The notes below the pieces were generated by a model. The model made no database searches. It worked only from the letters and a program-made list of their open reading frames with translations, and had not been told where the DNA came from. A stretch of 64,000 nt of DNA from Mustelus asterias (Eukaryota): positions 34,472,001-34,536,000 of the forward strand of contig NC_135808.1 of NCBI RefSeq assembly GCF_964213995.1, in the 5' to 3' direction. Within the stretch, counting starts at the first letter, position 1. Each line of letters begins with the position of its first letter. The position numbers and the translations under genes are program-made. Shown piece after piece: positions 5,969 through 54,563 of this stretch.

Positions 5969-6957
5969 TAAGAACAAAGAACAAAGAACAGTACAGCACA
6001 GGAAACAGGCCCTTCGGCCCTCCAAGCCTGTGCCGCTCCTTGGTCCAACTAGACCAATCGTTTGTATCCCTCCATTCCCAGGCTGCTCATGTGACTATCC
6101 AAGTAAGTCTTAAATGATGTCAGCGTGCCTGCCTCCACCACCCTACTTGGCAGCGCATTCCAGGCCCCCACCACCCTCTGTGTAAAAAACATCCCTCTAA
6201 TATCTGAGTTATACTTCGCCCCTCTCACCTTGAGCCCGTGACCCCTCGTGAACGTCACTTCTGACCTGGGAAAAAGCTTCCCACCGTTCACCCTATCTAT
6301 CCCCTTCATAATCTTGTACACCTCTATTAGATCTCCCCTCATTCTCCGTCTTTCCAGGGAGAACAACCCCAGTTTACCCAATCTCTCCTCATAGCTAAGA
6401 CCCTCCATACCAGGCAACATCCTGGTAAACCTTCTCTGCACTCTCTCTAATGCCTCCACGTCCTTCTGGTAGTGCGGCGACCAGAACTGGATGCAGTACC
6501 CCAAATGTGGCCTAACCAGCGTTCTATACAGCTGCATCATCAGACTCCAACTTTTATACTCTATACCCCGTCCTATAAAGGCAAGCATACCATATGCCTT
6601 CTTCACCACCTTCTCCACCTGTGTTGCCACCTTCAAGGATTTGTGGACTTGCACACCTAGGTCCCTCTGTGTTTCTATACTCCTGATGACTCTGCCATTT
6701 ATTGTATAACTCCTCCCTACATTATTTCTTCCAAAATGCATCACTTCGCATTTATCCGGATTAAACTCCATCTGCCACCTCTCCGCCCAATTTTCCAGCC
6801 TATCTATATCCTGCTGTATTGCCCGACAATGCTCTTCGCTATCCGCAAGTCCAGCCATCTTCGTGTCATCCGCAAACTTGCTGATTACACCAGTTACACC
6901 TTCTTCCAAATCATTTATATATATCACAAATAACAGAGGTCCCAGTACAGAGCCCTA
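5969..6957 (-). mobile_element. CR1 LINE, 5'-truncated (RT C-terminal half)
   Basis: Open ORF 6049-6927 with YINDL…FADDTK…RPHLGYC…RRRMRGDL, and (TTCTTTG)n tail at the left end. Confidence 0.95.
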
Positions 6958-6959
6958 TT

Positions 6960-8040
6960 AGTAGACAGTGAAAAGTATTGTTTCTGGCACGCTATACAGA
7001 AAAAGCATACTGTTCATAGAGAAGGAAACGCGAGAGAGTGCAGAATGTAGTGTTACAGTCATAGCTAGGGTGTAGAGGAAGATCAACTTAATGCGAGATA
7101 GGTCCATTCAAAAGTCTGACAGCAGCAGGGAAGAAGCTATTCTTGAGTCGGTTGGTACATGACCTCAGACTTTTGTATCCTTTTCCTGACAGAAAAAGGT
7201 GGAAGAGCGAATGTCCAGAGTGTGTGGGGTCCTTGATTATACTGGCTGCTTTGCTGAGGCAGCGGGAAGTGTAGACAGAGTCAATGGATGGGAGGCTTTT
7301 GCGGAATGGATTGGGCTACATTCACGACTATTTGTAGTTTCTTGTGGTCTTGGGCAGAGCAGGAGCCATACCAAGCTGTGATACAACCAGAAAGAGTGCT
7401 TTCTATGGTGCATCTGTAAACGTTGGTGAGAGTCGTAGCTGATATGCCAAATTTCCTTCGTCTTCTCAGAAAGTAGAGGCGTTGGTGGGCTTTCTTAACT
7501 ATAGTGGGGGGACCAGGACAGGTTGTTGGTGATATGGACACCTAAAAATTTGAAGCTCACGACCATTTCTACTTTGTCTCCGTTGATGTCAACAGGGACA
7601 TGTTCTCCTCTACACTTCCTGGAGTTGATGACAATCTCCTTCGATTTGATGACATTGAGGGAGAGATTATTGTCATTGCACCAGTTCACCAGATTCTCTA
7701 TCTCATTCCTGTACTCTGTCTCATCATTGTTTGAGATCCGACCCACTATGGTGGTGTCGTCAGCAAACTTGAAAATCGAGTTGGAGGGGAATTTGGCCAT
7801 ATAGTCGTAGGTGTATAAGGAGTATAGTAGGGGGCTGAGAATACAGCCTTATGGGGCACCAGTGTTGAGGATGATCATGGAGGAGGTGTTGTTGCCTATC
7901 CTTACAGACTGTGGTCTGTGAGTTAGGAAGTTCAGGGTCCAGTCGCAGAGGGAGGAGCCAAGCCCCAGGCCACAGAGTTGGGAGATAAGTTTCATAGGAA
8001 TAATGGTGTTGAAGGCTGAGCTGTAGTCAATAAATAGGAG
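6960..8040 (-). mobile_element. Rex1/Babar-type LINE 3' fragment
   Basis: ORFs 7495-7800 (KFADDTTIVGRISNNDETEYR…FKFLGVHI) and 7281-7541 (KKAHQRLYFLRR…YRCTIES…CITAWYG) carry Rex1-clade RT motifs. Confidence 0.85.
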
Positions 8041-40100: not shown

Positions 40101-42650
40101 AGGGAGGAAAATGCGGGTCCCCTAGCCGAGATATTTGAATCATCGATAGTCACGAGTGAGGTGCCTGAAGATTGGAGAGTGGCAAATCTTGTGCCTTTGT
40201 TTAAAAAGGGCTGCAGGGAAAAGCCTGGGAACTACAGGCCAGTGAGCCTCACATCTGTGGTGGGTAAGTTGTTGGAAGGTATTTTGAGAGATAGGATCTA
40301 CAGGCATTTAGAGACGCAAGGACTGATTAGGGACAGTCAGCATAGCTTTGTGAGTGGAAAATCATGTTTCACAAATCTGATTAAGTTTTTTGAAGGGGTA
40401 AACAAGAAGTTAGATGAGGGCAGTGCAGTTGATGTTGTGTATATGGACTTTAGCAAGGCCTTTGACAAGGTACCGCATGGTAGGTTGTTGCATAAGGTTA
40501 AATCTCATGGGATCCAGGGTGAGGTAACCAATTGGATACAAAATTGGCTTCTTGACAGAAGCCAGAGGGTGGTTGTAGAGGGTTATTTTTCAAACTGGAG
40601 GCCTGTAACCAGCGGTGTGTCTCAGGGATCAGTGCTGGGTCCACTGTTATTTGTCATTTATATTAATGACTTGGATGAGAATATAGGAGGCATGGCTAGT
40701 AAGTTTGCAGATGACACTAAGATTGGTGGCACAGTGGACAGTGAAGAAAGTTATTTCCAATTGCAACGGGATCTTGATCAATTGGGCCAGTGGGCTGACA
40801 AATGGCAGATGGAGTTTAATTTAGACAAATGTGAGGTGATGCATTTTGGGAGATTGAACCAGGGCAGGACTTACTCAGTTAATGAGAGGGCATTGGGGAG
40901 AGTTACAGAACAAAGAGATCTTGGGGTACATGTTCATAGCTCCTTGAAAGTGGAGTCACAGGTGGACAGAGTGGTGAAGAAGGCATTCAGCATGCTTGGT
41001 TTCATTGGTCAGAACATTGAATACAGGAGTTGGAATGTCTTGTTGAAGTTGTACAAGACATTAGTAAGGCCACACTTGGAATACTGTGTGCAATTCTGGT
41101 CACCCTATTATAGAAAGGATATTATTAAACTAGAAAAAGTGCAGAAAAGATTTACGAGGATGCTACCGGGACTTGATGGATTGCATTATAAGGAGAGGCT
41201 GGACAGATTGGGACTTATAGAGATCTATAAAATAATGAGTGGCACAGATCAGCTAGATAGTCAATATTTTTTCCCAAAGGTAGGGGAGTCTAAATCTAGA
41301 GGGCATAGGTTAAAGCTGAGAGGGGAGAGATACAAAAGTGTCCAGAGGGGCAATTTTCTCACACAGAGGGTGGTGAGTGTCTGGAACAAGCTGCCAGAGG
41401 TAGTAGTAGAGGCGGGTACAATTTTGTCTTTCAAAAAGGATTGAGACAGTTACATGGGTACGATGGGTATAGAGGGATATGGGCTAAATAGAGGCAATTG
41501 GGATGAGTTTAGGGGTTTTAAAAAAAAGGGCAGCATGGACAAGTTGGGCTGAAGGGCCTGTTTCCATGCTGTAAACCTCTATGACTCTATGATTCTATAT
41601 CCCCCCCACACACCCCCAGCAACACACGCTCTCCATACACCCCTCAACAGGCCCCCAGCAACACACGCTCTCCATACACCCCTCAACAGGCTCCCAGCAA
41701 CACAAACTCCCCACAACCCCCCAACAGATCCCCAGCAACACACACACACCCCATAGCCCCCCCAACAGACCCCCAACAACACACACTCCCCATGCACCCC
41801 CCAACACCACACAATCCCCATACCCCCCACACAGATCCCCAGCAACACACACTCCCCATACCCCCCCACAGACCCCCCTCTGCAACACATACTCCCCATA
41901 CCCCCCCACAGACCCCCAGCAGCACACACACCCCATAGCCCCCCCAACAGACCCCCCAACGACACACACTCCCCATGCAGCCCCCAACACACCACCAGCA
42001 ACACACAATCACCATACACCCCACACAGACCCCCAGAAACACACACTCCCCATACCCACCCAAACAGATCCCCAGCAACACACACTCCCCATACCCTCCC
42101 CCCCCACAGACCCCCCTCTGCAATACATACTCCCCATATCCCCCCCGCAGACCCCCAGCAGCACACACCCCCCATGCCCACCCACACAGACCCCCAGCAA
42201 CACACACTCCCCATACACCCCCACACAGACCCCCAGCAGCACACACCCCCCATGCCCACCCACACAGACCCCTAGCAACCACACATTCCCCATACCCACC
42301 CACACAGACCCCCAGAAACACGCACTCCCCATACCCTCACCAACAGACCCCCAGCAACACACTCCCCCATAACCCCCCTACACACCCCAAGCAACACAAC
42401 TCCCCATACACCCCCCACATACCCCCCCCCACAGAACCCCAGCAACAAACACTCCCCATACCCCTTGACACAGACCCCCAGCAACACACACTCCCCACAC
42501 CCCCCCAACAACACACACTCCTCATACCCTCCCACATCCCCCAACAACACACACTCCCTATACCTCCCCACACCCCACCAGCAACGCACACTCCTCATAC
42601 TCTGCCAAACAGACTCCCGGCAACACACACACCCCATAGACCCCCACAGC
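37175..42650. repeat. C/A-rich ~36-bp degenerate satellite (37175-39863 and 41598-42650), split by CR1
   Basis: Unit cagcaacacacactccccataccccccacagacccc. Confidence 0.95.
39955..41597 (+). mobile_element. CR1 5'-truncated copy, RT frame open to 41444
   Basis: KSTGPD, DFSKAFDKVPH, FADD and RPHLEYC; in-frame deletion of the FSLERRRLRGD segment; ctctatga-type tail. Confidence 0.93.
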
Positions 42651-43536
42651 CCCCCAGAATGGCAACGCAGGCACTCCTATTCCACCCCTCACACACACCC
42701 AGAGCCCGTGCAGTAGTGGCCCAGACAGCGCTGCTTGACAAGTGCTGAGGCTGCAGTGCTGCCAGTTCTGAGAGTTTCCAGCCCATCCCCCACCTGCAAC
42801 AGTGCTTGCTGCTGCCTGCACTAGGACCCAGAGTCAGCGCCAAGCCCCAAGGTTGGCACTCAGACCCGTGTCCGTGCCGAGAGGCCAAAGTCAGACCCAA
42901 TGAGCAACAAAAGCTCCCCATCCTCCTCACACACGCAGACCCCCACAACCTGAAATGCAACATGGCTGCCATGAAACAGTCCCCCCTTCCTTGAGCAGCA
43001 CGGAGCCATTTGAAAGCAGAGACCGACCTCCTTGCTCACTCTCTCTGCTTCAGCATCTGAATCCGACTTTTACACTTGGTGTTTTCTGGTTGCAGGTACA
43101 GCGAGTGAGGTTGTTAAGGAGGCGAGCTGGGCTGATTGGGAGTGAAGCTCGCTGTGATTAATGCAAAAAAATGCAAAATGGTGTTTCACCCATTTTGGAC
43201 GGGGTCCCAATCGCACCGATATCTTTTGGTAAAATGGGAATGGGCGTGAAAATGGGTACCATTCCCGCTAGTTCCAGCGCTTCCAATTTTATGACTTTTT
43301 TCCACCGCAAAATGGGTGCAATGATGTTGTAAAATTCTGTTCATCATGTTTAACAGAGGGCAATAACAGGGGCGCTCAGTCCAAAATGTAGATTGGGCAA
43401 TAAATCAGTGTCACAGACTGACTGGTATCATGACCTATCCACTCTGCACACCCGTCCTCCATAATATGGCAATTGATGTGGGCTATACTATAAATACTCC
43501 AGAACAACTCTCCTGCCCCCTGCCACCTTTACCCCA

Positions 43537-44965
43537 GTAAGAAGTCTCACAACATCAGGTTAAAGTCCAACAGGTTTATTTGGTAGCACAAGCCACTAGC
43601 TTTTGGAGCGCTGCCCCTTCGTCAGGTAAGTGGGAGTTCTGTTCACAAACAGGGCATTTAAAGACACAAATTCAATTTACAAAATAATGGTTGGAATCCG
43701 AGTCTTTACAGGTAATGTGAGTGGAGAGAGGGTTAAGCACAGGTTAAAGAGATGTGTATTGTCTCCAGCCAGAACAGTTAGTGAGATTTTGCAAGCCCAG
43801 GCAAGTCGTGGGGGTTACAGATAGTGTGACATGAACCCAAGATCCTGGTTGAGGCCGTCCACATGTGTGCAGAACTTGGCTATCAGTCTCTGCTCAGTGA
43901 CTCTGCATTGTCGTGTGTCGTGAAGGCCGCCTTGGAGAACGCTTATCCGAAGATCAAGAACAACAAAGAACAATACAGCACAGGAACAGGCCCTTCGGCC
44001 CTCCAAGCCCGCGCCGCTCCCTGGTCCAAACTAGACCATTCTTTTGTATCCCTCCATTCCCACTCCGTTCATATGGCTGTCTAGATAAGTCTTAAACGTT
44101 CCCAGTGTGTCCGCCTCCACCACCTTGCCTGGCAGCGCATTCCAGGCCCCCACCACCCTCTGTGTAAAATATGTCCTTCTGATATCTGTGTTAAACCTCC
44201 CCCCCTTCACCTTGAACCTATGACCCCTCGTGAACGTCACCACCGACCTGGGGAAAAGCTTCCCACCGTTCACCCTATCTATGCCTTTCATAATTTTATA
44301 CACCTCTATTAAGTCTCCCCTCATCCTCCGTCTTTCCAGGGAGAACAACCCCAGTTTACCCAATCTCTCCTCATAACTAAGCCCCTCCATACCAGGTAAC
44401 ATCCTGGTAAACCTCCTCTGTACTCTCTCCAAAGCCTCCACGTCCTTCTGGTAGTGTGGCGACCAGAACTGGACGCAGTATTCCAGATGCGGCCGAACCA
44501 ACGTTCTATACATCTGCAACATCAGACCCCAACTTTTATACTCTATGCCCCGTCCTATAAAGGCAAGCATGCCATATGCCTTCTTCACCACCTTCTCCAC
44601 CTGTGACGTCACTTTCAAGGATCTGTGGACGAGTACAGGACAGAGGCCGAATGTCCGTGACCGCTGAAGTGTTCCCCAACAGGAAGAGAACACTCTTGCC
44701 TGGTGCTTAACCCTCTCTCCACTCACATTGTCTGTACCTTTAAGACTTGATTACCTGTAAAGACTCGCATTCCAACCATTATTCTGTAAATTGAGTTTGT
44801 GTCTTTATATGCCCTGTTTGTGAACAGAACTCCCACTTACCTGATGAAGGAGCAGCGCTCCAAAAGCTAGTGGCTTGTGCTACCAAATAAACCTGTTGGA
44901 CTTTAACTTGGTGTTGTGAGACTTCTTACTGTGTTTACCCCAGTCCAACGCCGGCATCTCCACAT
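43537..44965. mobile_element. Penelope-like element with inverted arms, interrupted by a CR1 fragment
   Basis: Minus arm 43537 to ~44700 and plus arm ~44704-44965; 13-bp TSD CACCTTTACCCCA (43524-43536, 44966-44978). Confidence 0.9.
43956..44630 (-). mobile_element. CR1 3' fragment
   Basis: HRSLKV…RPHLEYC…RRRMRGDL in ORF 44031-44726, with tail at the left end. Confidence 0.92.
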
Positions 44966-45259
44966 CACCTTTACCCCAACCAGATCCTGTATAACAAAGC
45001 CACCAGCACAATGGAGCTGAATTTTGCAGCCATTTCCCTCTCCAATTAAATTAACAGAAGGAAATGCGATGCGGTTGAAATAACTCCACGGAGGCGAGAG
45101 TCCCATCCACAAGCTTCTTTATCTACAAACTATAATATATATACAGAGCTAGCACTCCCGGTAGCTTCCTGCTATGGCAGGCTGAGAGACTGACACACCT
45201 GCTTTAAATAGGGAGCATGAGGCTCCCTGATTTAACCATCAGTTAGGACTCATCAGATA

Positions 45260-45397
45260 TCTCTTTTTGCGATAAAGAAAACCCGCACAGACACGGGCAG
45301 AACGTGCAAACTCCACTCAGAGATCGGGAATCGAACCTGGGAGCCTGGCCCTGTGAGACAGCAGTGCTAACCATTGTGCCACCGCAGCCACTCCCAA
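45260..45397 (-). mobile_element. 138-bp chimeric insert: V-SINE head plus Tx1-like AAAAAGAGA tail
   Basis: 16-bp TSD TAGGACTCATCAG(A/C)TA at 45244-45259 and 45398-45413. Confidence 0.8.
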
Positions 45398-45461
45398 TAG
45401 GACTCATCAGCTAGTTCATACCCAGCAAGCCAACCTCTTTAGCCTGGCTGAAGTCATCACA

Positions 45462-45474
45462 CTCCTCCCCCCCC
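45462..45474 (-). other. Polypurine tract of the Gypsy element
   Basis: Minus strand reads a G-run plus AGGAG immediately before the 3' LTR TG. Confidence 0.85.
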
Positions 45475-46099
45475 AAAGTCCGAGGAATCCCCTCGGTTTG
45501 CTTCCCTCAGGGGTCTTTTCCTCTGTTTGAGCGCCGGGTCAGGATCCTCCAACTCTGCCTCTGAAGTGTGTAATGGTTGGGCGCCTGTCTCTTCCGCAGT
45601 GAACACCGGAGGTCTGGTTCCTCGTCCACTTCAGGTGGTAGAGGAATCGCTGCAGCTTCATCCCTTGTGTCCATTTCGGACCCTGAGTCCCCATCAAGGG
45701 TGCAGGAGAGGCGGAACTGGCTTGTCGAGGGGGACTCTGCTCGCCCCTAGGGCTACAGGGTGGACTCGGCTCCGGAACGAGTGGAGAGCTTGAGGCCCGG
45801 ACCTGGTCCAGGTGTTTCCTTACCACTGCCTCGCCTACGCGTACTCGGTTGGATGCCGGTCCTGTCCTGTACTCAACTGTTCCGGTTACCCGGGCGGGTC
45901 CATTTGCATAACCTCTGACCCAAACTCTCTCAGCTGCTTCAAAGTGCCTCTCTCGGCGAATGTTGTTATGGCCCCTGCATTGGGCTTCCTGGTGTCTTTC
46001 CACCTTTCCTCCCAGGTTTGGCAACAACAGGCTCAGTCTGGTGTGGGCTGTCTGCCCATCAGTAACTCTGCTGGCACAGTTCCCGTGGTGGCGTGTGGA

Positions 46100-49000
46100 G
46101 CGGTCCTACAGTCAAATAACCACCTTGAGAGTTTCGTCTCTAAATGAGGCCACTGGCTGTTTTTTCAACCCGGCCTTTAACATCTGGACTGCTCTCTCCG
46201 CTCGCCAATTTGACACCGGGTGGTAAGGTGCCGTCTTGATGTGCTGGATCCCATTTGATTTCATAAATTTTGTGAACTCTAGGCTGGTGAACACTGAACC
46301 ATTATCGAAACTAATAGCTCTGGGATCCCGAGGTGTGCAGTTTCTCAACGGTTGCCATCGTGTTTGCCGAATTTAGTTTATAGACGTCTAACCACTTTGA
46401 ATGGGCATCTATTATCACCAGAAACATGGACCCCACAAACAGGCCTAGAAAATCGACATGGAGTTGTGACCATGGTCTACCTGGCCATTCCCATGGGTGC
46501 AGCAAGGCTGCCGGTGGTGCCATCTGCCCCTGTTGGCACTTCTGGCACTGTCCTACCAGTTTCGCTATGTCTGCGTCCAGATCTGGCCACCAGACGTAGC
46601 TCCTGGCCAGCATCTTCATTATTGATACTCCAGGGTGCCCATGGTGTAGTTCGGCCAGAATGGCCCGACAGCCCTGCCTTGGGACGATGACCCGTGCTCC
46701 CCACAGCAGGATCCCGTCTTCCACCGTGATCTGCTCCCTTCTGCTCCAGTATGGGTGGAACTGTGGATGGACCGGTCTTTCCAGCTGCCCTGTTAGCACC
46801 AGGTGCTTTACCTTCGCCAATACAGGGTCTTTCTGCGTCCACTGGCGTATATTGTGTGCATCCACTGGGAGGGTATCCGGAAAGTTTAATGTCATCACAG
46901 TCTCTTCCATTCTGGGTACCAATGGTGGGGTGTCCGGTAACGGTAGCCGGCTTAAGGCATCGGCATTTGCCACTCTAATCCCTGGTCGGTGTTCCGATCG
47001 ATACTGATATGCTGCCAGCAATAATGCCCAACGCTGGATCCGGGCTGACGCTATCGGCGGCACTGCTTTGTCTTCCTTCAGTGGGCCCAGCAAAGGTTTA
47101 TGATCTGTTACGATCATAAATTTTCACCCATATAAATACTGGTGAAATGTTTTGACTACAAAGACTGCCAGTCCTTCCTTTCCAATCTAGGCTTATCTTC
47201 GCTCTGCCATTGCCAGGGCCCTGGAGGCATACGCTATTGGCCGGTTTTGTCCGTTCTGCCACCTGTGTGCCAGGAATGCACCAACTCCATATGGGGACTC
47301 GTCACAGCTGAGTACCAATTCCTTATAATGTATCAATACATTTTTGGATGAGAGTTGCTGTTTAATTTTCTTGAAGGCCCTGTCCTGGTGGGCCGACCAT
47401 TCCCAAGTTTGTCCCTTTTTTAGCAGCTGGTGGAGGGGATCCAGAATGGAGGCCCTATTCTGTATGAATTTCCCGTAGTATGTTAGTCCTAAAAACGACC
47501 ATAGCTCCTGGATGGTTGTGGGAGCCGGGGCGTCTTTTATTGCTCGCACCCGATCCTCCAGAGGATGTAGGCCCGACTTATCCACTTTGTTCCTGAGAAA
47601 CGTTATTAGTTGTGCTAAAAAGACACATTTCTCCCTTTTCAAACGCACTCCCACTGCTACAAATCTCCTGAGAACTTCATCCAGATTCTGCAGATGTTCT
47701 GCCCTTGTTTTACCCGTAATGAGGATATCGTCTAGGTAAATAGCAACCTGTGGTAACCCCTGGAGGATGCTCTCCATGGTCCTTTGGAATATGGTACAAA
47801 CTGACGAAAATCAAAAGGCAATGTTTTATACTGGAAGAGGCCTTTCAGGGTATTTATTGTGGTGAATTTTTGCGAATCCTCGTTCTGCCCTAGTTGCAGG
47901 TATGCGTGGCTCATGTCCAGTTTTGTGAATAGGAGTCCTCCTGCCAACTTTGCGTACAGGTCCTCAATCCTGGGAATTGGGTATTTGTCTAGCTGAGAGT
48001 AACGATTTATCATCTGTTTGAAATTGCAGCAAAGGTGCACTGAGCCATCCAGCTTTAAGATAGGAACCACAGGTGCCGCCCATTCTGCGAACTGGACCGG
48101 TTTTATTATTCCTTCGTGCAGTAATCTTTTGATTTAAGAATCAACCTTTTCCCAGAACGCAAAAGGTACCAGTCGGGCTTTGCAAAACTTTGGGACAGGC
48201 TCCGGGTCGACGGGCAATTTTGCCTTGATTCCTTTGATTGTTCCTCGGCCTTCCCGAAAAATCTCCGGATATTTGTTCAGGGCCTCACTCAGGCGACCAT
48301 TTTCCAGCTGGAAGATATTTGTCCAATCTAGCTGGACCTCTTTTAGCCAATTTCGCCCTAATAGGTCCCGAACCTTCCACTACCATTAATGGGAGCCTAA
48401 CTAATTGCTTCCCGTATGCAACTGGCACATGGGTTGTACCCATCACTTTCAGTGGTTCCCCCGTATAGGCCCTCAGCCTTGCCAAAGTTTTGGTCAGGGC
48501 TAAGAGTTGTAGTATCTTGTTAAACACTGTCTCCCAGTGATCGATACGGCTGCGCCTGTGTCGACCTCCATTAAAATTGGACGTCCATTCAGTCTCACTG
48601 ACAATTTGATGAGTTCTGACTTTGTCATTGCTACGCACTGTAGCTGTTCCTCATCAGAGGTAGGGGGAGCTTCCAGGTTGTGCATTCTCCTGTCCCTTGA
48701 CCTACGTGTTCTTTTTGGCCATGTTGGTTTAGGAACATTGCTTTTCCTCTGTGCCTCCAAACACTGGCAACCATCGCAATGTTGTGTTGGGCGGGGCTCT
48801 ACAAGAACTGCTGTCACTCTGGGCTTAACCTGACCTTGTCTAGGTGCGGTTCTACAGGTGGACGTGGGCTCCCTTGTATCCGAATCCTGCCGGAGGGCTG
48901 CTATGTTGTGGCCTGCCCCGTAGTGGTAGTCCCCTAACCTAGTCTCCCTGGTGTTGGCCTCTACCTCCATCGGATTACCCTGGAGCTCATGCACTCTGCT

Positions 49001-49503
49001 TGCCACTTTTTCTAATGACAAGGCCAGCTGTAATGCCTGTTTACAGTCCAGCTGGGCCTCCGCTAACAGGCATTTCTGTACAGTCATATCATTAATTCCG
49101 CACACCAATCGGTCTTGGAGCATCTCATTTAGTGTCTCCCCCTGCATTCGCAAGTCTCCGCCGGACATCTTAGCCTCGTTAGGAAACTGATGATTGACTC
49201 CCCCGCTGCTCTAAATGTGGAATAAAAACGGTGCCTCCTCAGGATCAGGGTTGGCTTAGGGTCATAATATTCTTGAACTAAGTCTGACAACTCTTGGAAG
49301 GACTTTGTGTCCGGTGCCTCCGGGAAAGTTAAAGTGCGCATAATTGCAAAAGCTGCTGGTCCACAGGCAGTCAGCAAGATAACCCTTTGCTTCTCATCTG
49401 AGGTCATGTCGTTTGCCCTGAGGAAATACTTCATCCTTTCCACATATTGGGCCCAGTCCTCCACTGTGGGGACAAAAGAGTCCAACTTCCCAAATAGCGG
49501 CAT
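46100..49503 (-). pseudogene. Gypsy gag-pol pseudogene
   Basis: MPLFGKLDSF…EDWAQYVER (gag), MEVDTGAAVS, FTKLDMSHAYLQ, IYLDDILI, TDHKPL, HHGHPG…CQKC, DNGSVF…YHP. Confidence 0.9.
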
Positions 49504-49573
49504 GTTTTCCCAACAATGGCTTACCCTCAATATGTGCGGTGGTTCAGCAAGTTCCTTCAGGTCACTCCTTTTT

Positions 49574-49584
49574 CCTCGTCGCCA
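49574..49584 (-). other. Primer-binding site TGGCGACGAGG, complementary to the tRNA-Ser(GCU) 3' end
   Basis: Lies 1 nt inside the 5' LTR end. The tRNA assignment comes from the recalled vertebrate tRNA-Ser-GCT 3' end …CCTCGTCGCCA. Confidence 0.8.
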
Positions 49585-49769
49585 CTGAAATAACTCCATG
49601 GAAGGGGAGAGTCCCATCACCAAGTTACTTTATTTACAAACTATAATAAATATACAGAGCTTGCACTCCCGATAGCTTCCTGCTATGGCAGGCTAAGGGA
49701 CTGTCACATCTGCTTTAAATAGGGAGCATGAGGCTCCCTGATTGGACATCAATGAGAACTCATCAGGTA

Positions 49770-50380
49770 TCTCTTTCGGGTACCAACATAATAAACTAAC
49801 TCAAATTAACTTAGGGACAAAGTAAAAGGGGCGGCTCCCCAAAAGGAAGGGGGAACAGCCCGAACCAAAAACAAAGTCGAAAGGAAACTTAAAACGTCAA
49901 ACTAAAAAGTGATTATCGGGGTCGATAATACACCCCAGCCCCTGCGGCGCCCAGCGGTCGCGGAAGGCGTCAACCGCGCCCGTGGACACCGCATGCACCC
50001 TCTCCAGAGACACCTGGCCGCGAATGTAGCCGCGGTAGAGGGGCAGACAGTCGGGATGGACGGCCCCGTCGATCGCCCGCTGCCTGGACCTATTGATGGC
50101 GCGTCTCGCCAGGCCCAGGAGCAGGTTCACGAGGAGGTCGGCATCCCGACCCGCCCCTCTCCGCACCAGGTGCCCGTAGATCAGGAGCGTGGGACTGAAG
50201 TGCAAACAAAACATCAATAAGAGGTGTTTGAGGAAACCAAAAAGGGTGTGCAGCCTAAAACACAGAACGTAGACATGGTCCACGGACTCCACGAGGCCAC
50301 AGAAAGGGCAGTCTCGGGAGCCCGTGTACCGGAAAAACCTACGGTTGTACGGCACTGCTGCGTGCAGCACCCTCCACCCA
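49770..50380 (-). mobile_element. Tx1-clade LINE 3' fragment inserted in the Gypsy 5' LTR
   Basis: WRVLHAAV…CPFCGLVESVDHVYVLC zinc-knuckle region, 3' end …GAAAGAGA and perfect 16-bp TSD GAGAACTCATCAGGTA (49754-49769, 50381-50396). Confidence 0.9.
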
Positions 50381-50601
50381 GAGAACTCATCAGGTAGTTC
50401 ATCCTCTAGCAAGCCAACCTCATTAGTCTGACTGTAGTCACCACAGCGGTGTAAAGCAGCCCACCCCTTCACTATTAATGCATTCACACTCCTGGGTGAA
50501 TCAATTTCACCCTCACTGTACCTGGGTGAATGTGAGAATGTAAATCTCTCTCCTGCAGGGGGAGACATTGTAAAGTTTATCACAGGCTGGAATTGAAATA
50601 T

Positions 50602-50971
50602 ACAGTAAGAAGTCTCACAACACCAGGTTAAAATCCAACAGGTTTATTAGGCACTAGCTTTCTGAGTCTCGGGCTCCTTCATCAGGTGAGTGGGAGTTCT
50701 GTTCACAAACAGGGCATATAAAGACACAAACACAATTTACAAAATAATGATTGGAATGCGAGTCTTTACAGGTAATTAAGTCTTAAAGGTACAGACAATG
50801 TGAGTGGAGAGAGGGTTAAGCACAGGTTAAAGAGATGTGTATTGTCTCCAGCCAGGACAGTTAGTGAGAGTTTGCAAGCCCAGGCAAGTTGTGGGGGTTA
50901 CAGATAGTGTGACATGAACCCAAGATCCCGGTTGAGGCCGTCCTCACGTGTACGGAACTTGGCTATCAGTT
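50602..50971 (-). mobile_element. Penelope pLTR fragment with hammerhead motif
   Basis: Same family as 33500-33880; motif at 50652-50688. Confidence 0.88.
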
Positions 50972-51449
50972 TCAATTAAGGGGTTAGAGTGGGTTAGACA
51001 GATACCAGTCATCTGTATCGTGGATGGGGATTCAGATCCAACCCTGTCCAATAGGCAGAAAGTTTGTTCAGTCTGTTAGTTTTCAGAGTCTATTCCAGAT
51101 GAACATTCTGAACCCAACTCTCACAACATGAAAAACATTCCCGTTCAGTGTTAGTGACAATCTCAGCTCAATCCAAACAGAGTAAAGACTTTCTGATTAA
51201 AGCTCACCTTGATCTGAAATGTTAACTTTGTTTCTCCCCACAGATGCTGCCTGACCTGCCGATTATTTCCAGCATTATTTTTATAAATAAAGGAGTTATT
51301 GGAAACAGACACCAATCAGACATTTTCCTTTCAGTTTCTTATCAACATTTTGGGCACAAGTTGCTCGTGATTTCCCATCAAACTTTAATAGATCATAAAA
51401 TGTATGTGAAGTGCATCCTCATTTCCAGTAGAAACTCCTATTGGGTGAA

Positions 51450-52471
51450 GTTCCCCGTGGAGGTCTCTCTACAGAGGGATCTCCCCCCACTATGTCGGGG
51501 ACCTGGGGTGGAGGGTGCTGCACTCTTCACTGTACAATCGTAGGTTGTACCGGTTCACGGGCTCCCAAGGGTGCCCTTTTTGCAACTTTGTGGAGTCCGT
51601 GGACCATATCTATGTTATCTGTTGTAGGCTGCACAACCTTTTCAGTTTTCGAAAAAAACCTTTTATTGAAGTTTTGTTTGCACTTCAGTCCCACGCTCCT
51701 GATCTACGGGCACCTGGTGCGGAGGGAGGGGCAGGTAAGGAGGAGTAGCTCCTTGTGAACCTGCTCCCGGGTCTGGCAAGACGTGCCATCTATAGGTCCA
51801 GGCAGCGGGCGATCGAGGGGGTCATCCAACCCGACTGTCTGCCCCTCTACCGCAGCTACATTCGCAGCCGGATGTCCCTGGAAAGGGAGCATGCAGTGTT
51901 TGAGGGCACCACTGATGCCTTCTGTGCCCGCTTGGCACCGCAGGGACTGGGGTGTATTATTGACCCCTTTAATCATATTTTCATAGAAAGAAATCATAGA
52001 AACCCTACAGTGCAGAAGGAGGCCATTCGGCCCATCGAGTCTGCACCGACCACAATCCCACCCAGGCCGTACCCCCACATATTTACCCGCTAATCCCACT
52101 AACCTACGCATCTCACGACTCTAAGGGGCAATTTTTAACCTGGCCAATCAACCTAACCCGCACATCTTTGGACTGTGGGAGGAAACCGGAGCACCCGGAG
52201 GAAACCCACGCAGACACGAGGAGAATGTGCAAACTCCACACAGACAGTGACCCGAGCCGGGAATCGAACCCGGGACCCTGGAGCTGTAAAGCAGCAGTGC
52301 TAACCACTGTGCTACCGTGCCGCCCCCATGAAATTTTAATTTCATGTTTTAAGTTTCCTTTCCGCTTTGATTTTTGTTTTGGGCGGTTGCCCTCCTTTTA
52401 GGGAGCTGCCCCTTTTGGGTTGTCCCTAAGTTAATTTGATTTTGTTTATTTGGTTGGGGAAAAAAAAGAGA
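51450..52471 (+). mobile_element. Tx1-clade LINE 3' fragment containing an HE1-like SINE (~51981-52327, -)
   Basis: CPFCNFVESVDHIY, 3' end AAAAAAAGAGA and 14-bp TSD TCC(T/C)ATTGGGTGAA (51436-51449, 52472-52485). Confidence 0.88.
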
Positions 52472-52552
52472 TCCCATTGGGTGAATCTCCTTCTTGGGTG
52501 AACAAGATAAAAATCTAGCCTCTGATTTCTGGTTTCTGAAGAAAGCATCATA

Positions 52553-52893: not shown

Positions 52894-52937
52894 TGCAAAC
52901 AGGGTAATTTTCCAATTTTAGCCAATTTAGCCAATGC

Positions 52938-53300
52938 AGTTTTATTCTGTATCTAAGCCCGTGCTGTAGCTCCTTGGGGAGTGTACGAGGAGAACAGTGT
53001 AGAGGGAGCCTTACTCTGTATCTAACCCCATGTTGTACCTGTCCTGGGAGTGTTTGATGGGGACAGTGTAAAGGCAGCTTTATTCTATATCTAACCCTAT
53101 GCTGTACCTGTCCTATGAGTGTTTGATGGGGACAGTGGAGAGGGAGCTTTACTCAATATCTAACCTCATGCTGTACCTGTCCTGGGAGTGTTTGGTGGGG
53201 TCAGTGTAAAGGGAGCTTTACTCTATATCTAACCCTATGTTGTACCTGTCCTGGGAGCGTTTGGTGGAGACAGTGTAGAGGGAATCTGATTGTATGTAGA
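52938..53300. repeat. 69-bp tandem repeat, ~5 copies
   Basis: Unit approximately gggagctttactctgtatctaaccc…tgtacctgtcctgggagtgtttgatggggacagtgtaga. Confidence 0.9.
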
Positions 53301-54211
53301 CCCAGTGTGTGACAGTAATGGCAGGTTTTGTAGATAAGACAGGGCTGGCAATAAACAACGACACAGCTGCTGAAGTTTTATTGCCAAGATCAAAGGGTAA
53401 AATAAACATGTGTCCTTACCTTTATCTCAAGGTTTGACCTGAGTTGAGAAGGAGGGGGTTTTGGGAAGACCTGAGGACAGAGATAGTGGCTGTCAAGCAA
53501 AAAAGCAAAATCCCAAACACAAAATTGTGACATTTTAAACATCTTGCCTTCTTGCCTTAACCTGATTCCTCTGTCAGCAGCATCTTCTGGAGAGGGAAAA
53601 GAAGGAAATGGGAAAAATAGAGATTTCCAGATATTTGTTGGGATTCCATCCTGATTTTTATCCCAATATCACAGGGCATGTTAATTGTATATTAACTGGG
53701 TGTTTAATTGAATTCTGGTACTGGGTATTAACTGGGGATTTACCTGTGCCCATAGAATATACATTGAGCAGGTAGGAGGTATATGTCTGCAATCTATAGC
53801 TCTGTACGTAAATAGTTTTATATATAGGAGCAGACTGAATGTGGTTGTTGAGATTGTAGGTAGGTACTTGATATGTAATATGTTTCTCTGTAAATTAAAG
53901 CTTGGAAGTGTATATCTCACATGTCAGTGCAGACTTGATGGGCCGAAAGGCCTCTTCTGCACTTTGTGATTCTGTAATTAGGCTCCTCACCTCCACCTGG
54001 CTGTCTGAACCTCCTGAGGAAGGATTCTGATCAATATCGATGACAGGTCATCATGAAAGAAATCATTAACCCCACTTCTCTCTCCACAGAGGCTGCCTGA
54101 CCTTTTGAGTATTTCCAACATTTTCTGTTTTATTTCTGATAAATACTGGTACATGAAGCAGAATATATATAAAGAAAGATCACTCCCTCTACTGGCCAGC
54201 GATCTTTCTTT

Positions 54212-54563
54212 AGGGGCAGCACAGTGGTTAGCACTGCTGCCTCACAGCACCATGGACAGAGGTTCGATTCTGACCTTGGGTGACTGTGTGGAGTTTGCAC
54301 TTTCTCCCCGTTTCTGAGTGGGTTTCCTCTGCGTGCTCTGATTTCCTCCCACATTCCAAAAATGTGCAGGTTAGGTAGATTGGCCATGCTAAATTGCCCT
54401 TTAGTGTCCACAGATGTGCAGGTTAGGTAGATTAACCATGGGAAATGTGAGGGGTTACGGGGCTAGGACAGGGAGGGTGGGACTGGGTAGGATGCTCTTT
54501 TGGAGAGTCGGTGCAGATTCGATGGGCCGAATGGCCTCCTGTACTATAGGGATTATATTCTAT
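54212..54563 (+). mobile_element. HE1-like V-SINE
   Basis: gcacagtggttagcactgctgcctcacagc head, core and CR1-like tail. Confidence 0.88.

Follow-up and report, generated by a model that had tools for sequence, protein, structure and literature searches.

Duplication of a Putative Host LTR Promoter before Full-Length Copies of an LTR-Targeting Tx1 LINE in Mustelus asterias

Overview

A long interspersed nuclear element (LINE) of the Tx1 clade that inserts into the long terminal repeats (LTRs) of a Ty3/Gypsy retrotransposon was analyzed in the genome of Mustelus asterias. The analysis started from a 64,000-nucleotide stretch of contig NC_135808.1 (positions 34,472,001 to 34,536,000; hereafter, the window), where both LTRs of one Gypsy provirus carry inserts at the same base. 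Full-length Tx1 copies located elsewhere in the genome were found to be preceded by a segment of the local LTR that extends from the insertion site through the TATA box into R. This promoter-containing duplication is the main feature of the system; it lies outside the window and beyond the view of the original prediction, which was made from the letters of the window. Judging from the sequences, there is a good probability that the LINE inserts upstream of the TATA box and that the local LTR through R is duplicated during integration, likely serving as the promoter of the new copy. The structure of the duplication is far surer than the route by which it arises or its use as a promoter.

Long Target Duplications before Full-Length Copies

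Loci containing Tx1 and LTR sequences were fetched from the whole genome (3.68 Gb) and labeled L183, etc. The Tx1 site is located in the U3 region of the LTR at a distance of 50 bp from the TATA box, on its upstream side. Insertion takes place at a single base and in a single orientation; a plain insertion would therefore sit upstream of the LTR promoter. Forty-one loci with the start of open reading frame 1 (ORF1) were examined, namely, 39 of the best 40 of 392 candidates, together with L103 and L210. In 35 of the 41, inspection by eye showed that the 5′ untranslated region (UTR) was preceded by an LTR segment that begins at the site, spans TATA, and reaches into R, with a length of 90–340 bp in full-length copies. 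As for the other six, the 5′ end was lost or out of range in three, one was on target with a 15-bp duplication, and two were off target.

Both ends were in hand for 29 loci. Four of them were dropped (three in which the front of the next Tx1 forms the downstream LTR half, and one interrupted), leaving 25 for comparison. Between LTR positions +17 and +84, the downstream LTRs of these loci had 94 minority letters, 63 of which recurred in the front segment of the same locus, with 4.2 expected from other loci. Between +92 and +105, the letters switched to those borne by Tx1 (67 non-majority letters, 4 of them local). Older inserts lying between the site and TATA were duplicated as well: the two copies showed no difference over 295, 330, and 258 bp in L185, L191, and L202, respectively, and 12 differing columns over ~190 bp in L171. 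At C2:127.15 Mb, two full-length copies that are 97.4% alike reside in one LTR, and the private 9-bp deletion of this LTR is repeated in front of each. Among 13 composites with both LTR ends found, 10 had a matching 5-bp flank, indicating that each composite is one interrupted LTR. Taken together, the local variants, the duplicated older inserts, and the 5-bp flanks indicate that the front segment is a long duplication of the target rather than a part of the element, a conclusion well supported by sequence comparison. The duplications have no single fixed length, being 12–17 bp in truncated inserts versus 90–340 bp in full-length copies.

Start and End of the Tx1 RNA

Five full-length copies without the front segment start at LTR +80 to +83, i.e., TATA+30 to +33 (counted from the first T of TATA, +80 lies 30 nt further on). 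Two of them, L179 and L210, are off-LTR copies with 16- and 11-bp duplications, respectively, and begin with one extra G followed by LTR +80. This G is present in neither the target nor the LTR and may reflect the cap. The other starts were at +80 to +82 (L173), +82 (L124), and +83 (L138). Pattern scans for ends of the +80 type listed 65 and 58 matches, among which only L179 and L210 had non-LTR DNA upstream. These ends suggest that the Tx1 RNA starts at the LTR cap site (+80) and that the LTR core promoter is used.

The element has no poly(A) tail. Of 25 downstream LTR halves, 23 contain the AATAAA signal. It does not occur in the 7,041 nt of the full-length reference copy L183, and AAAG repeats replace it in copies where Tx1 carries R-U5. 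The off-LTR insert L104 consists of two Tx1 ends joined by the LTR site and has a 33-bp duplication with 5 nt of microhomology. This single case shows one RNA reading through the Tx1 3′ end, the LTR site, and a second fragment.

Tx1 Proteins and Classification

Full-length copies are ~7.0 kb long and encode ORF1 of ~710–727 codons and ORF2 of 1292–1305 codons. ORF2 is unbroken in eight copies, with 93.7–99.5% protein identity among them, and the LINE is young. Pfam matches in ORF2 comprised APE (PF03372, E 1.5e-13) and reverse transcriptase (RT; PF00078, E 3.2e-35). The motifs GGDFN, SRIDR, TDH, and YADD were present in all eight unbroken copies, and a CCHC motif was found at the C-terminus. 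The separate ORF1 (727 codons in one copy) contains a weak zinc knuckle (zf-CCHC, E 0.0014, just below the Pfam cut-off). The closest named relative of ORF2 is that of Xenopus Tx1 (48% identity over 99% of the length). The highest identities in the protein search belonged to ray and shark proteins, turtle homologues were found too, and the best relative of solved structure was L1 ORF2p. All tested features, namely, APE with RT, ORF1 with CCHC, and the closest named relative, agree with the Tx1 clade.

Occupancy and Specificity of the LTR Site

The filled junction was detected 187 times genome-wide and 0 times with a reversed control, so it does not arise by chance. Pattern searches returned 528 LTR copies whose downstream half is intact and 143 with the letters of the empty site; since the two patterns end differently, the occupancy ratio they give is approximate. 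Inspection of 30 loci showed 9 empty sites, 20 with a Tx1-type 3′ end, and one with another insert (21 of 30 filled; three rows were re-classed by eye). The site is occupied in about 70% of LTR copies. The strong preference of a Tx1 family for one Gypsy LTR site, as originally proposed, was thereby borne out, with most of the 528 copies filled. An LTR natively containing the duplication, the alternative named together with that proposal, was ruled out by the 143 empty copies.

The fillings were mostly Tx1 fragments, tandem arrays, or chimeras with tRNA, 7SK, or short interspersed nuclear element (SINE) sequences. Tx1 3′ ends gave 180 matches in all, 100 of which were listed and classed by eye. 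Forty abutted the LTR and 22 lay in arrays at the site (~62 together), 9 were at the matching site of sister LTRs, and 29 were elsewhere; a few of the latter turned out to be LTR-linked once fetched. The ~62 of 100 listed ends exceed the share (>20% of flanks in one repeat) that the main text of PMC4494074 uses for target specificity. The comparison of 3′ flanks upheld the LTR site as the preferred target, while flanks outside the LTR had only TACC in common (15, 12, 15, and 13 of 16 at positions 1–4). In most fetched non-LTR copies, TACC is also duplicated on the 5′ side, which identifies it as target sequence. The 3′ end AAAGAGA given in the original prediction is present but is only one of several, AAAGAGC, AAAGAAA, and AAAAAGC occurring also.

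Truncated inserts had duplications of 12–17 bp in 27 of 27 cases and 26 distinct starts among 32. None of seven two-LTR proviruses (six others and that of the window) had the same insert in both LTRs. The distinct starts and the provirus comparison indicate that the inserts are independent events. With ~70% of the sites occupied, about half of the proviruses should have both LTRs hit, and the pair of inserts that first drew attention is thus unremarkable; a further provirus of this kind was found at L241.

Inserts of 7SK RNA, tRNAs, and SINE RNA with Tx1-type 3′ tips were observed at the LTR site in L192, L007, L057, L077, L139, and L072, and one of the inserted tRNAs has an intron-sized gap. 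With regard to a Tx1-dependent SINE family with a repeated head–tail structure, the chimeras examined at the site all differed (SINE, four tRNA loci, 7SK). An snRNA, tRNA, or ribozyme as the true target was rejected: no Rfam match was found in positions 45000–50600 of the window at E up to 1, and the 3′ flanks consist of LTR, arrays, or unrelated DNA with nothing but TACC in common. The LTR target site has what we take to be a resemblance to a hammerhead core.

A segmentally amplified region at C10:50.7–53.4 Mb contains at least 12 near-identical Tx1 matches. L381 and L385 from this region represent the same filled LTR, with two inserts having a common 5′ start at position 4953 of L183. In L184, a full-length Tx1 has this Gypsy LTR family on its 5′ side and a different LTR family on its 3′ side; it is likely a recombination between two loci or a mis-join.

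Proposed Mechanism and Alternative Explanations

According to the proposed scheme, RNA polymerase II would start at the LTR cap site, giving an RNA that begins with ~40 nt or more of R and would end at AATAAA of the downstream LTR half. The APE domain would nick the bottom strand beside TACC, where read-through RNA may base-pair with the primer. Once reverse transcription is complete, the 3′ end of the cDNA would pair with R downstream of the nick in the same target. All DNA between the nick and R would then be copied, and the heteroduplex would be resolved between +80 and +120. RT may also jump onto tRNA, 7SK, and SINE RNAs, yielding chimeras such as the 138-bp insert of the window. Both the transcription and the pairing of cDNA with R are inferred steps.

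An independent hint comes from neighboring truncated inserts, which differ by 13–24%. Out of 15 such pairs, 6 were chimeric and set aside; 5 of the remaining 9 have a common 5′ start, as do L381/L385. Any two inserts share a start in 15 of 153 cases, those pairs included. Such shared starts are what junctions set by homology predict.

It appears rather probable, on the broader reading, that a LINE without its own promoter rebuilds the host LTR promoter at each insertion and ends at the host poly(A) signal. It would thus form an LTR-driven unit that does without LTR replication and has come to fill ~70% of its host's LTRs. It would also be part of a clade of Tx1 subfamilies that are directed at a single U3 motif conserved among related Gypsy families.

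A number of observations weigh against the proposed scheme. Within the duplication, 31 of the 94 local variants are not shared by the front segment and would need later mutation, only 17 of 25 loci have their own LTR as the strict best match, and the front segment of L384 shares no local variants. L173 is a full-length, on-target copy with a plain 15-bp duplication. L388, a 5′-truncated Tx1 at a non-LTR site, has a nearly perfect 315-bp duplication whose junction shows no extended homology; homology is thus not in every case required for a long duplication. At a different, Myb/SANT-bearing target, a sister subfamily has full-length copies with short duplications only and no duplicated promoter. 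As for the RNA ends, the start at the LTR promoter, its use, and the poly(A) site are read from DNA, L135 and L384 keep AATAAA in the 5′ segment, and 4 of 25 5′ UTRs contain A(A/T)TAAA near +500 to +570. One of the five starts shared by neighbors falls at a common truncation point. Finally, about 29 of the 100 listed 3′ ends lie outside LTRs by eye, so the targeting is a preference.

The foremost alternative, itself improbable, is that the protein itself makes a distant downstream cut in the top strand, as reportedly occurs in R9, and that the R match only helps sealing; the promoter would still be duplicated. L388, as well as the 33-bp duplication of L104 with its short microhomology, would fit such a distal cut. 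However, the length is not fixed, and the duplication ends in R whether R is 117 or 340 bp from the nick. The 12–17-bp duplications of all 27 truncated copies and those of 11 and 16 bp in the off-LTR full-length copies also speak against it.

A real duplication that is unneeded for expression, with an internal promoter in the Tx1 5′ UTR and the R match as a relic shaping only the junction, is rated slightly lower and considered unlikely. Many LINEs have such a promoter, and the sister subfamily keeps an R-like start at its target without the promoter duplication. The five 5′ ends that map to TATA+30 to +33 in the LTR, the extra G being present in two, point the other way, as does the R borne by Tx1, which in most copies stops short of AATAAA or lacks it.

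It is very unlikely that an insertion with a 15-bp duplication came first and that the promoter segment was added afterwards through recombination or conversion between the filled copy and an empty allele over the 40-nt R match. This route would give the same structure with local variants, and L173 looks like its starting form, but the rare event would be needed in 35 of 36 on-target copies with a visible 5′ end, including those without any difference between the duplicates.

The least probable explanation, that the LTR segment is part of the element and carried in RNA from an upstream start, or that filled LTRs spread by Gypsy transposition, was largely refuted by the comparisons of local variants and of two-LTR proviruses: although L104 shows that read-through RNA can carry the LTR site and the C10 amplification multiplied one filled LTR, an element-borne head was rejected as the segment matches its own local LTR and not other Tx1 copies, and hitchhiking on Gypsy was rejected given the 26 distinct starts among 32 truncated inserts and the 0 of 7 proviruses with a shared insert.

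The duplication of the LTR promoter during integration, if confirmed, provides a natural, countable read-out of 5′ junction formation, the least understood step of LINE integration, in the form of a homology search at a distance of 80–340 bp downstream from the nick. With its tens of young copies whose ORFs are unbroken and its target of 250 bp, the system lends itself to direct tests. A site-specific vertebrate LINE with a junction set by RNA homology would be of interest for targeted gene insertion. In addition, Tx1 may act as a brake on the host Gypsy, whose U3 is interrupted.

Sister Tx1 Subfamilies

In 17 of 23 distinct loci classed by eye, the subfamily to which the third Tx1 copy of the window belongs (Table 1) occupies the corresponding U3 site in one of several sister LTR families. 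The count is based on 30 loci (L337–L365; L069, L079, L321–L325), with seven repeats of two amplified loci merged. Twenty fetched loci of the sister subfamily included no clear full-length copy that sits in the subfamily's own LTR and has both ends. Another sister subfamily (L372, L374, L380, L382, L354) is inserted at a related motif ~70 bp upstream of an ORF with Myb/SANT matches (PF13837, PF13873). The repeat bearing this ORF is likely a Harbinger-type transposon; a Harbinger-targeting Tx1 was reported in crocodilians (main text of PMC4494074).

Gypsy Provirus and Inserts in the Window

The Gypsy provirus occupies positions 45076–50445 of the window on the minus strand (Table 1). Its gag-pol region gave Pfam matches to RVT_1, RT_RNaseH, and Integrase_H2C2 in broken frames. 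All tested features agree with Ty3/Gypsy: LTRs with TG...CA ends, a primer binding site (PBS), a polypurine tract (PPT), the order RT–RNase H–integrase, and a short flanking duplication.

Table 1. Positions of the provirus, its inserts, and the neighboring Tx1 copy in the window.
Feature	Positions	Strand	Remarks
Left copy of Gypsy 5-bp target duplication	45071..45075	.	GCGGT; partner 50446-50450
Gypsy 3′ LTR	45076..45461	-	TG...CA; U3 interrupted
TATA-like box, 3′ LTR	45203..45210	-	50 nt downstream of Tx1 site; putative promoter function, from sequence
3′ copy of 16-bp duplication, 3′ LTR	45244..45259	-	
138-bp chimera	45260..45397	-	5′ part of tRNA-type SINE, ~122 nt, and 16-nt Tx1-type tail
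5′ copy of 16-bp duplication, 3′ LTR	45398..45413	-	14/16 identical
Gypsy internal region	45462..49585	-	Broken gag-protease-RT-RNase H-integrase
Polypurine (PPT-like) tract	45462-45476		Within Gypsy internal region
PBS-like tract	49574-49585		Within Gypsy internal region
Gypsy 5′ LTR	49586..50445	-	U3 interrupted at same base as in 3′ LTR
AATAAA of 5′ LTR	49629..49634	-	Putative poly(A) signal
TATA-like box, 5′ LTR	49714..49721	-	Putative function
3′ copy of 16-bp duplication, 5′ LTR	49754..49769	-	
611-bp 5′-truncated Tx1	49770..50380	-	ORF2 end and 3′ UTR; L183 positions 6434-7041, 97% identical
5′ copy of 16-bp duplication, 5′ LTR	50381..50396	-	16/16 identical
Third Tx1 copy, sister subfamily, 5′-truncated	51450..52471	+	Non-LTR site; SINE inside; 14-bp duplication 51436-51449, 52472-52485

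On realignment, the coordinates of the two hits held: both LTRs are interrupted at the identical base, in the same orientation, and with 16-bp duplications. The alignments also confirmed that the inserts differ, one being a Tx1 fragment and the other a SINE chimera, and that each pair of duplications has the letters of its own LTR; 30 substitutions separate the two LTRs over 246 aligned bases (~12%). The 611-bp insert was aligned with L183, an unbroken copy that lies elsewhere in the genome. The SINE part of the 138-bp chimera aligns to two more copies in the window (near 52000–52330 and 54210–54540), and the chimera gave no Rfam match. It is most simply explained by a switch of Tx1 RT from its template onto SINE RNA. 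As part of the best explanation, both inserts are truncated products of the LTR-targeting Tx1 system.

The divergence of the LTRs is 12%, compared with 5.6–10.1% in six other proviruses, and their R is unlike that of the main subfamily; the provirus is either older or recombinant. Tandem arrays are located at 41560–42950 and 52910–53330 of the window (units of ~39 nt and ~69 nt). Three related fragments of another repeat, one of them inverted, lie on either side of the provirus (43535–43890, 44703–44970, and 50600–50975). One of these contains a CTGATGA...AAA motif, presumably the one of Penelope hammerhead ribozymes.

Comparison with Known Systems

The targeting of LTRs by Tx1 is an already known kind of behavior, and the promoter-containing duplication of full-length copies is the new part. 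The LTR-site hyperparasite had not been recognized as described in the original prediction; crocodilian Tx1 families targeting LTRs were already reported. According to the main text of PMC4494074, Tx1-8_Crp, Tx1-4_AMi, and Tx1-Mar/SINEU prefer other transposons, with LTR retrotransposons preferred by two families. The same text describes tandem insertions sandwiching a duplication, snRNA-headed passengers, and small RNAs mobilized in trans, and its author suggests transcription from flanking target DNA. The system analyzed here thus resembles the crocodilian one in clade, LTR preference, tandem insertions with duplication, and small RNAs moved in trans (PMC4494074). The difference is that the site, the LTR superfamily, the occupancy, and a promoter-containing duplication do not appear in that main text, although supplementary figures S3–S4 could bear on them.

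In Xenopus laevis, Tx1 (Tx1L) targets the DNA transposon Tx1D, and Keno targets U2 snRNA genes, as summarized in the main text of PMC4494074; here, by comparison, the target is a Gypsy LTR. Keno and Utopia at U2 genes are also covered by PMC4640811. Tx1L shares with the element analyzed here the ORF2 similarity given above, APE with RT, and a fixed site in a repeated target. In some families of the Tx1-Mar/Keno subgroup, the heads are derived from snRNA, whereas the 5′ end is here derived from the R of an LTR. We know of no long duplication for Tx1L or Keno.

For R1A of the Drosophila melanogaster group, it was proposed that target sequence at the RNA's 5′ end anneals to the target and sets the 5′ junction; truncated copies have ordinary 14-bp duplications, and 3′ read-through target sequence may aid priming (PMC2718515). 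The target-matching 5′ end of the RNA, the ordinary duplications of truncated copies, and the 3′ read-through are common to both systems (PMC2718515). In R1A, however, the match is upstream of the nick and leads to a 9-bp deletion, whereas here it is 80–120 bp downstream and leads to a duplication holding the promoter; moreover, R1 lies inside the transcribed rRNA gene, while the Tx1 site is upstream of the host promoter (PMC2718515). The R1A geometry of an upstream match with deletion is not found here, and the two would work alike in mirror geometry.

The R2-type element R9 of rotifers is said to have an exceptionally long target duplication of 126 bp, with one fixed length in rDNA. Such a long duplication by a site-specific LINE is the point of likeness; here, unlike in R9 as reported, the length depends on the completeness of the copy and the position of R. 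Template-switch chimeras of the U6-L1 kind, in which a small RNA is fused 5′ of a LINE 3′ end, are similar to those found here, but here the fusions occur at a fixed site. HeT-A and TART borrow the promoter from a neighbor, outside the transcribed unit; an outside promoter is likewise proposed here, but it would come from another class of elements and be re-copied at insertion.

In the searched literature, no LINE duplicating an LTR promoter at insertion was found (most subscription journals and Repbase Reports lay outside the coverage). LINEs have so far been seen to retain a promoter through the RNA stage by means of an internal promoter, co-transcription with a host gene, or the 3′ end of a neighbor. 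Copying of the target's promoter during integration, if true, would add a further way to these.

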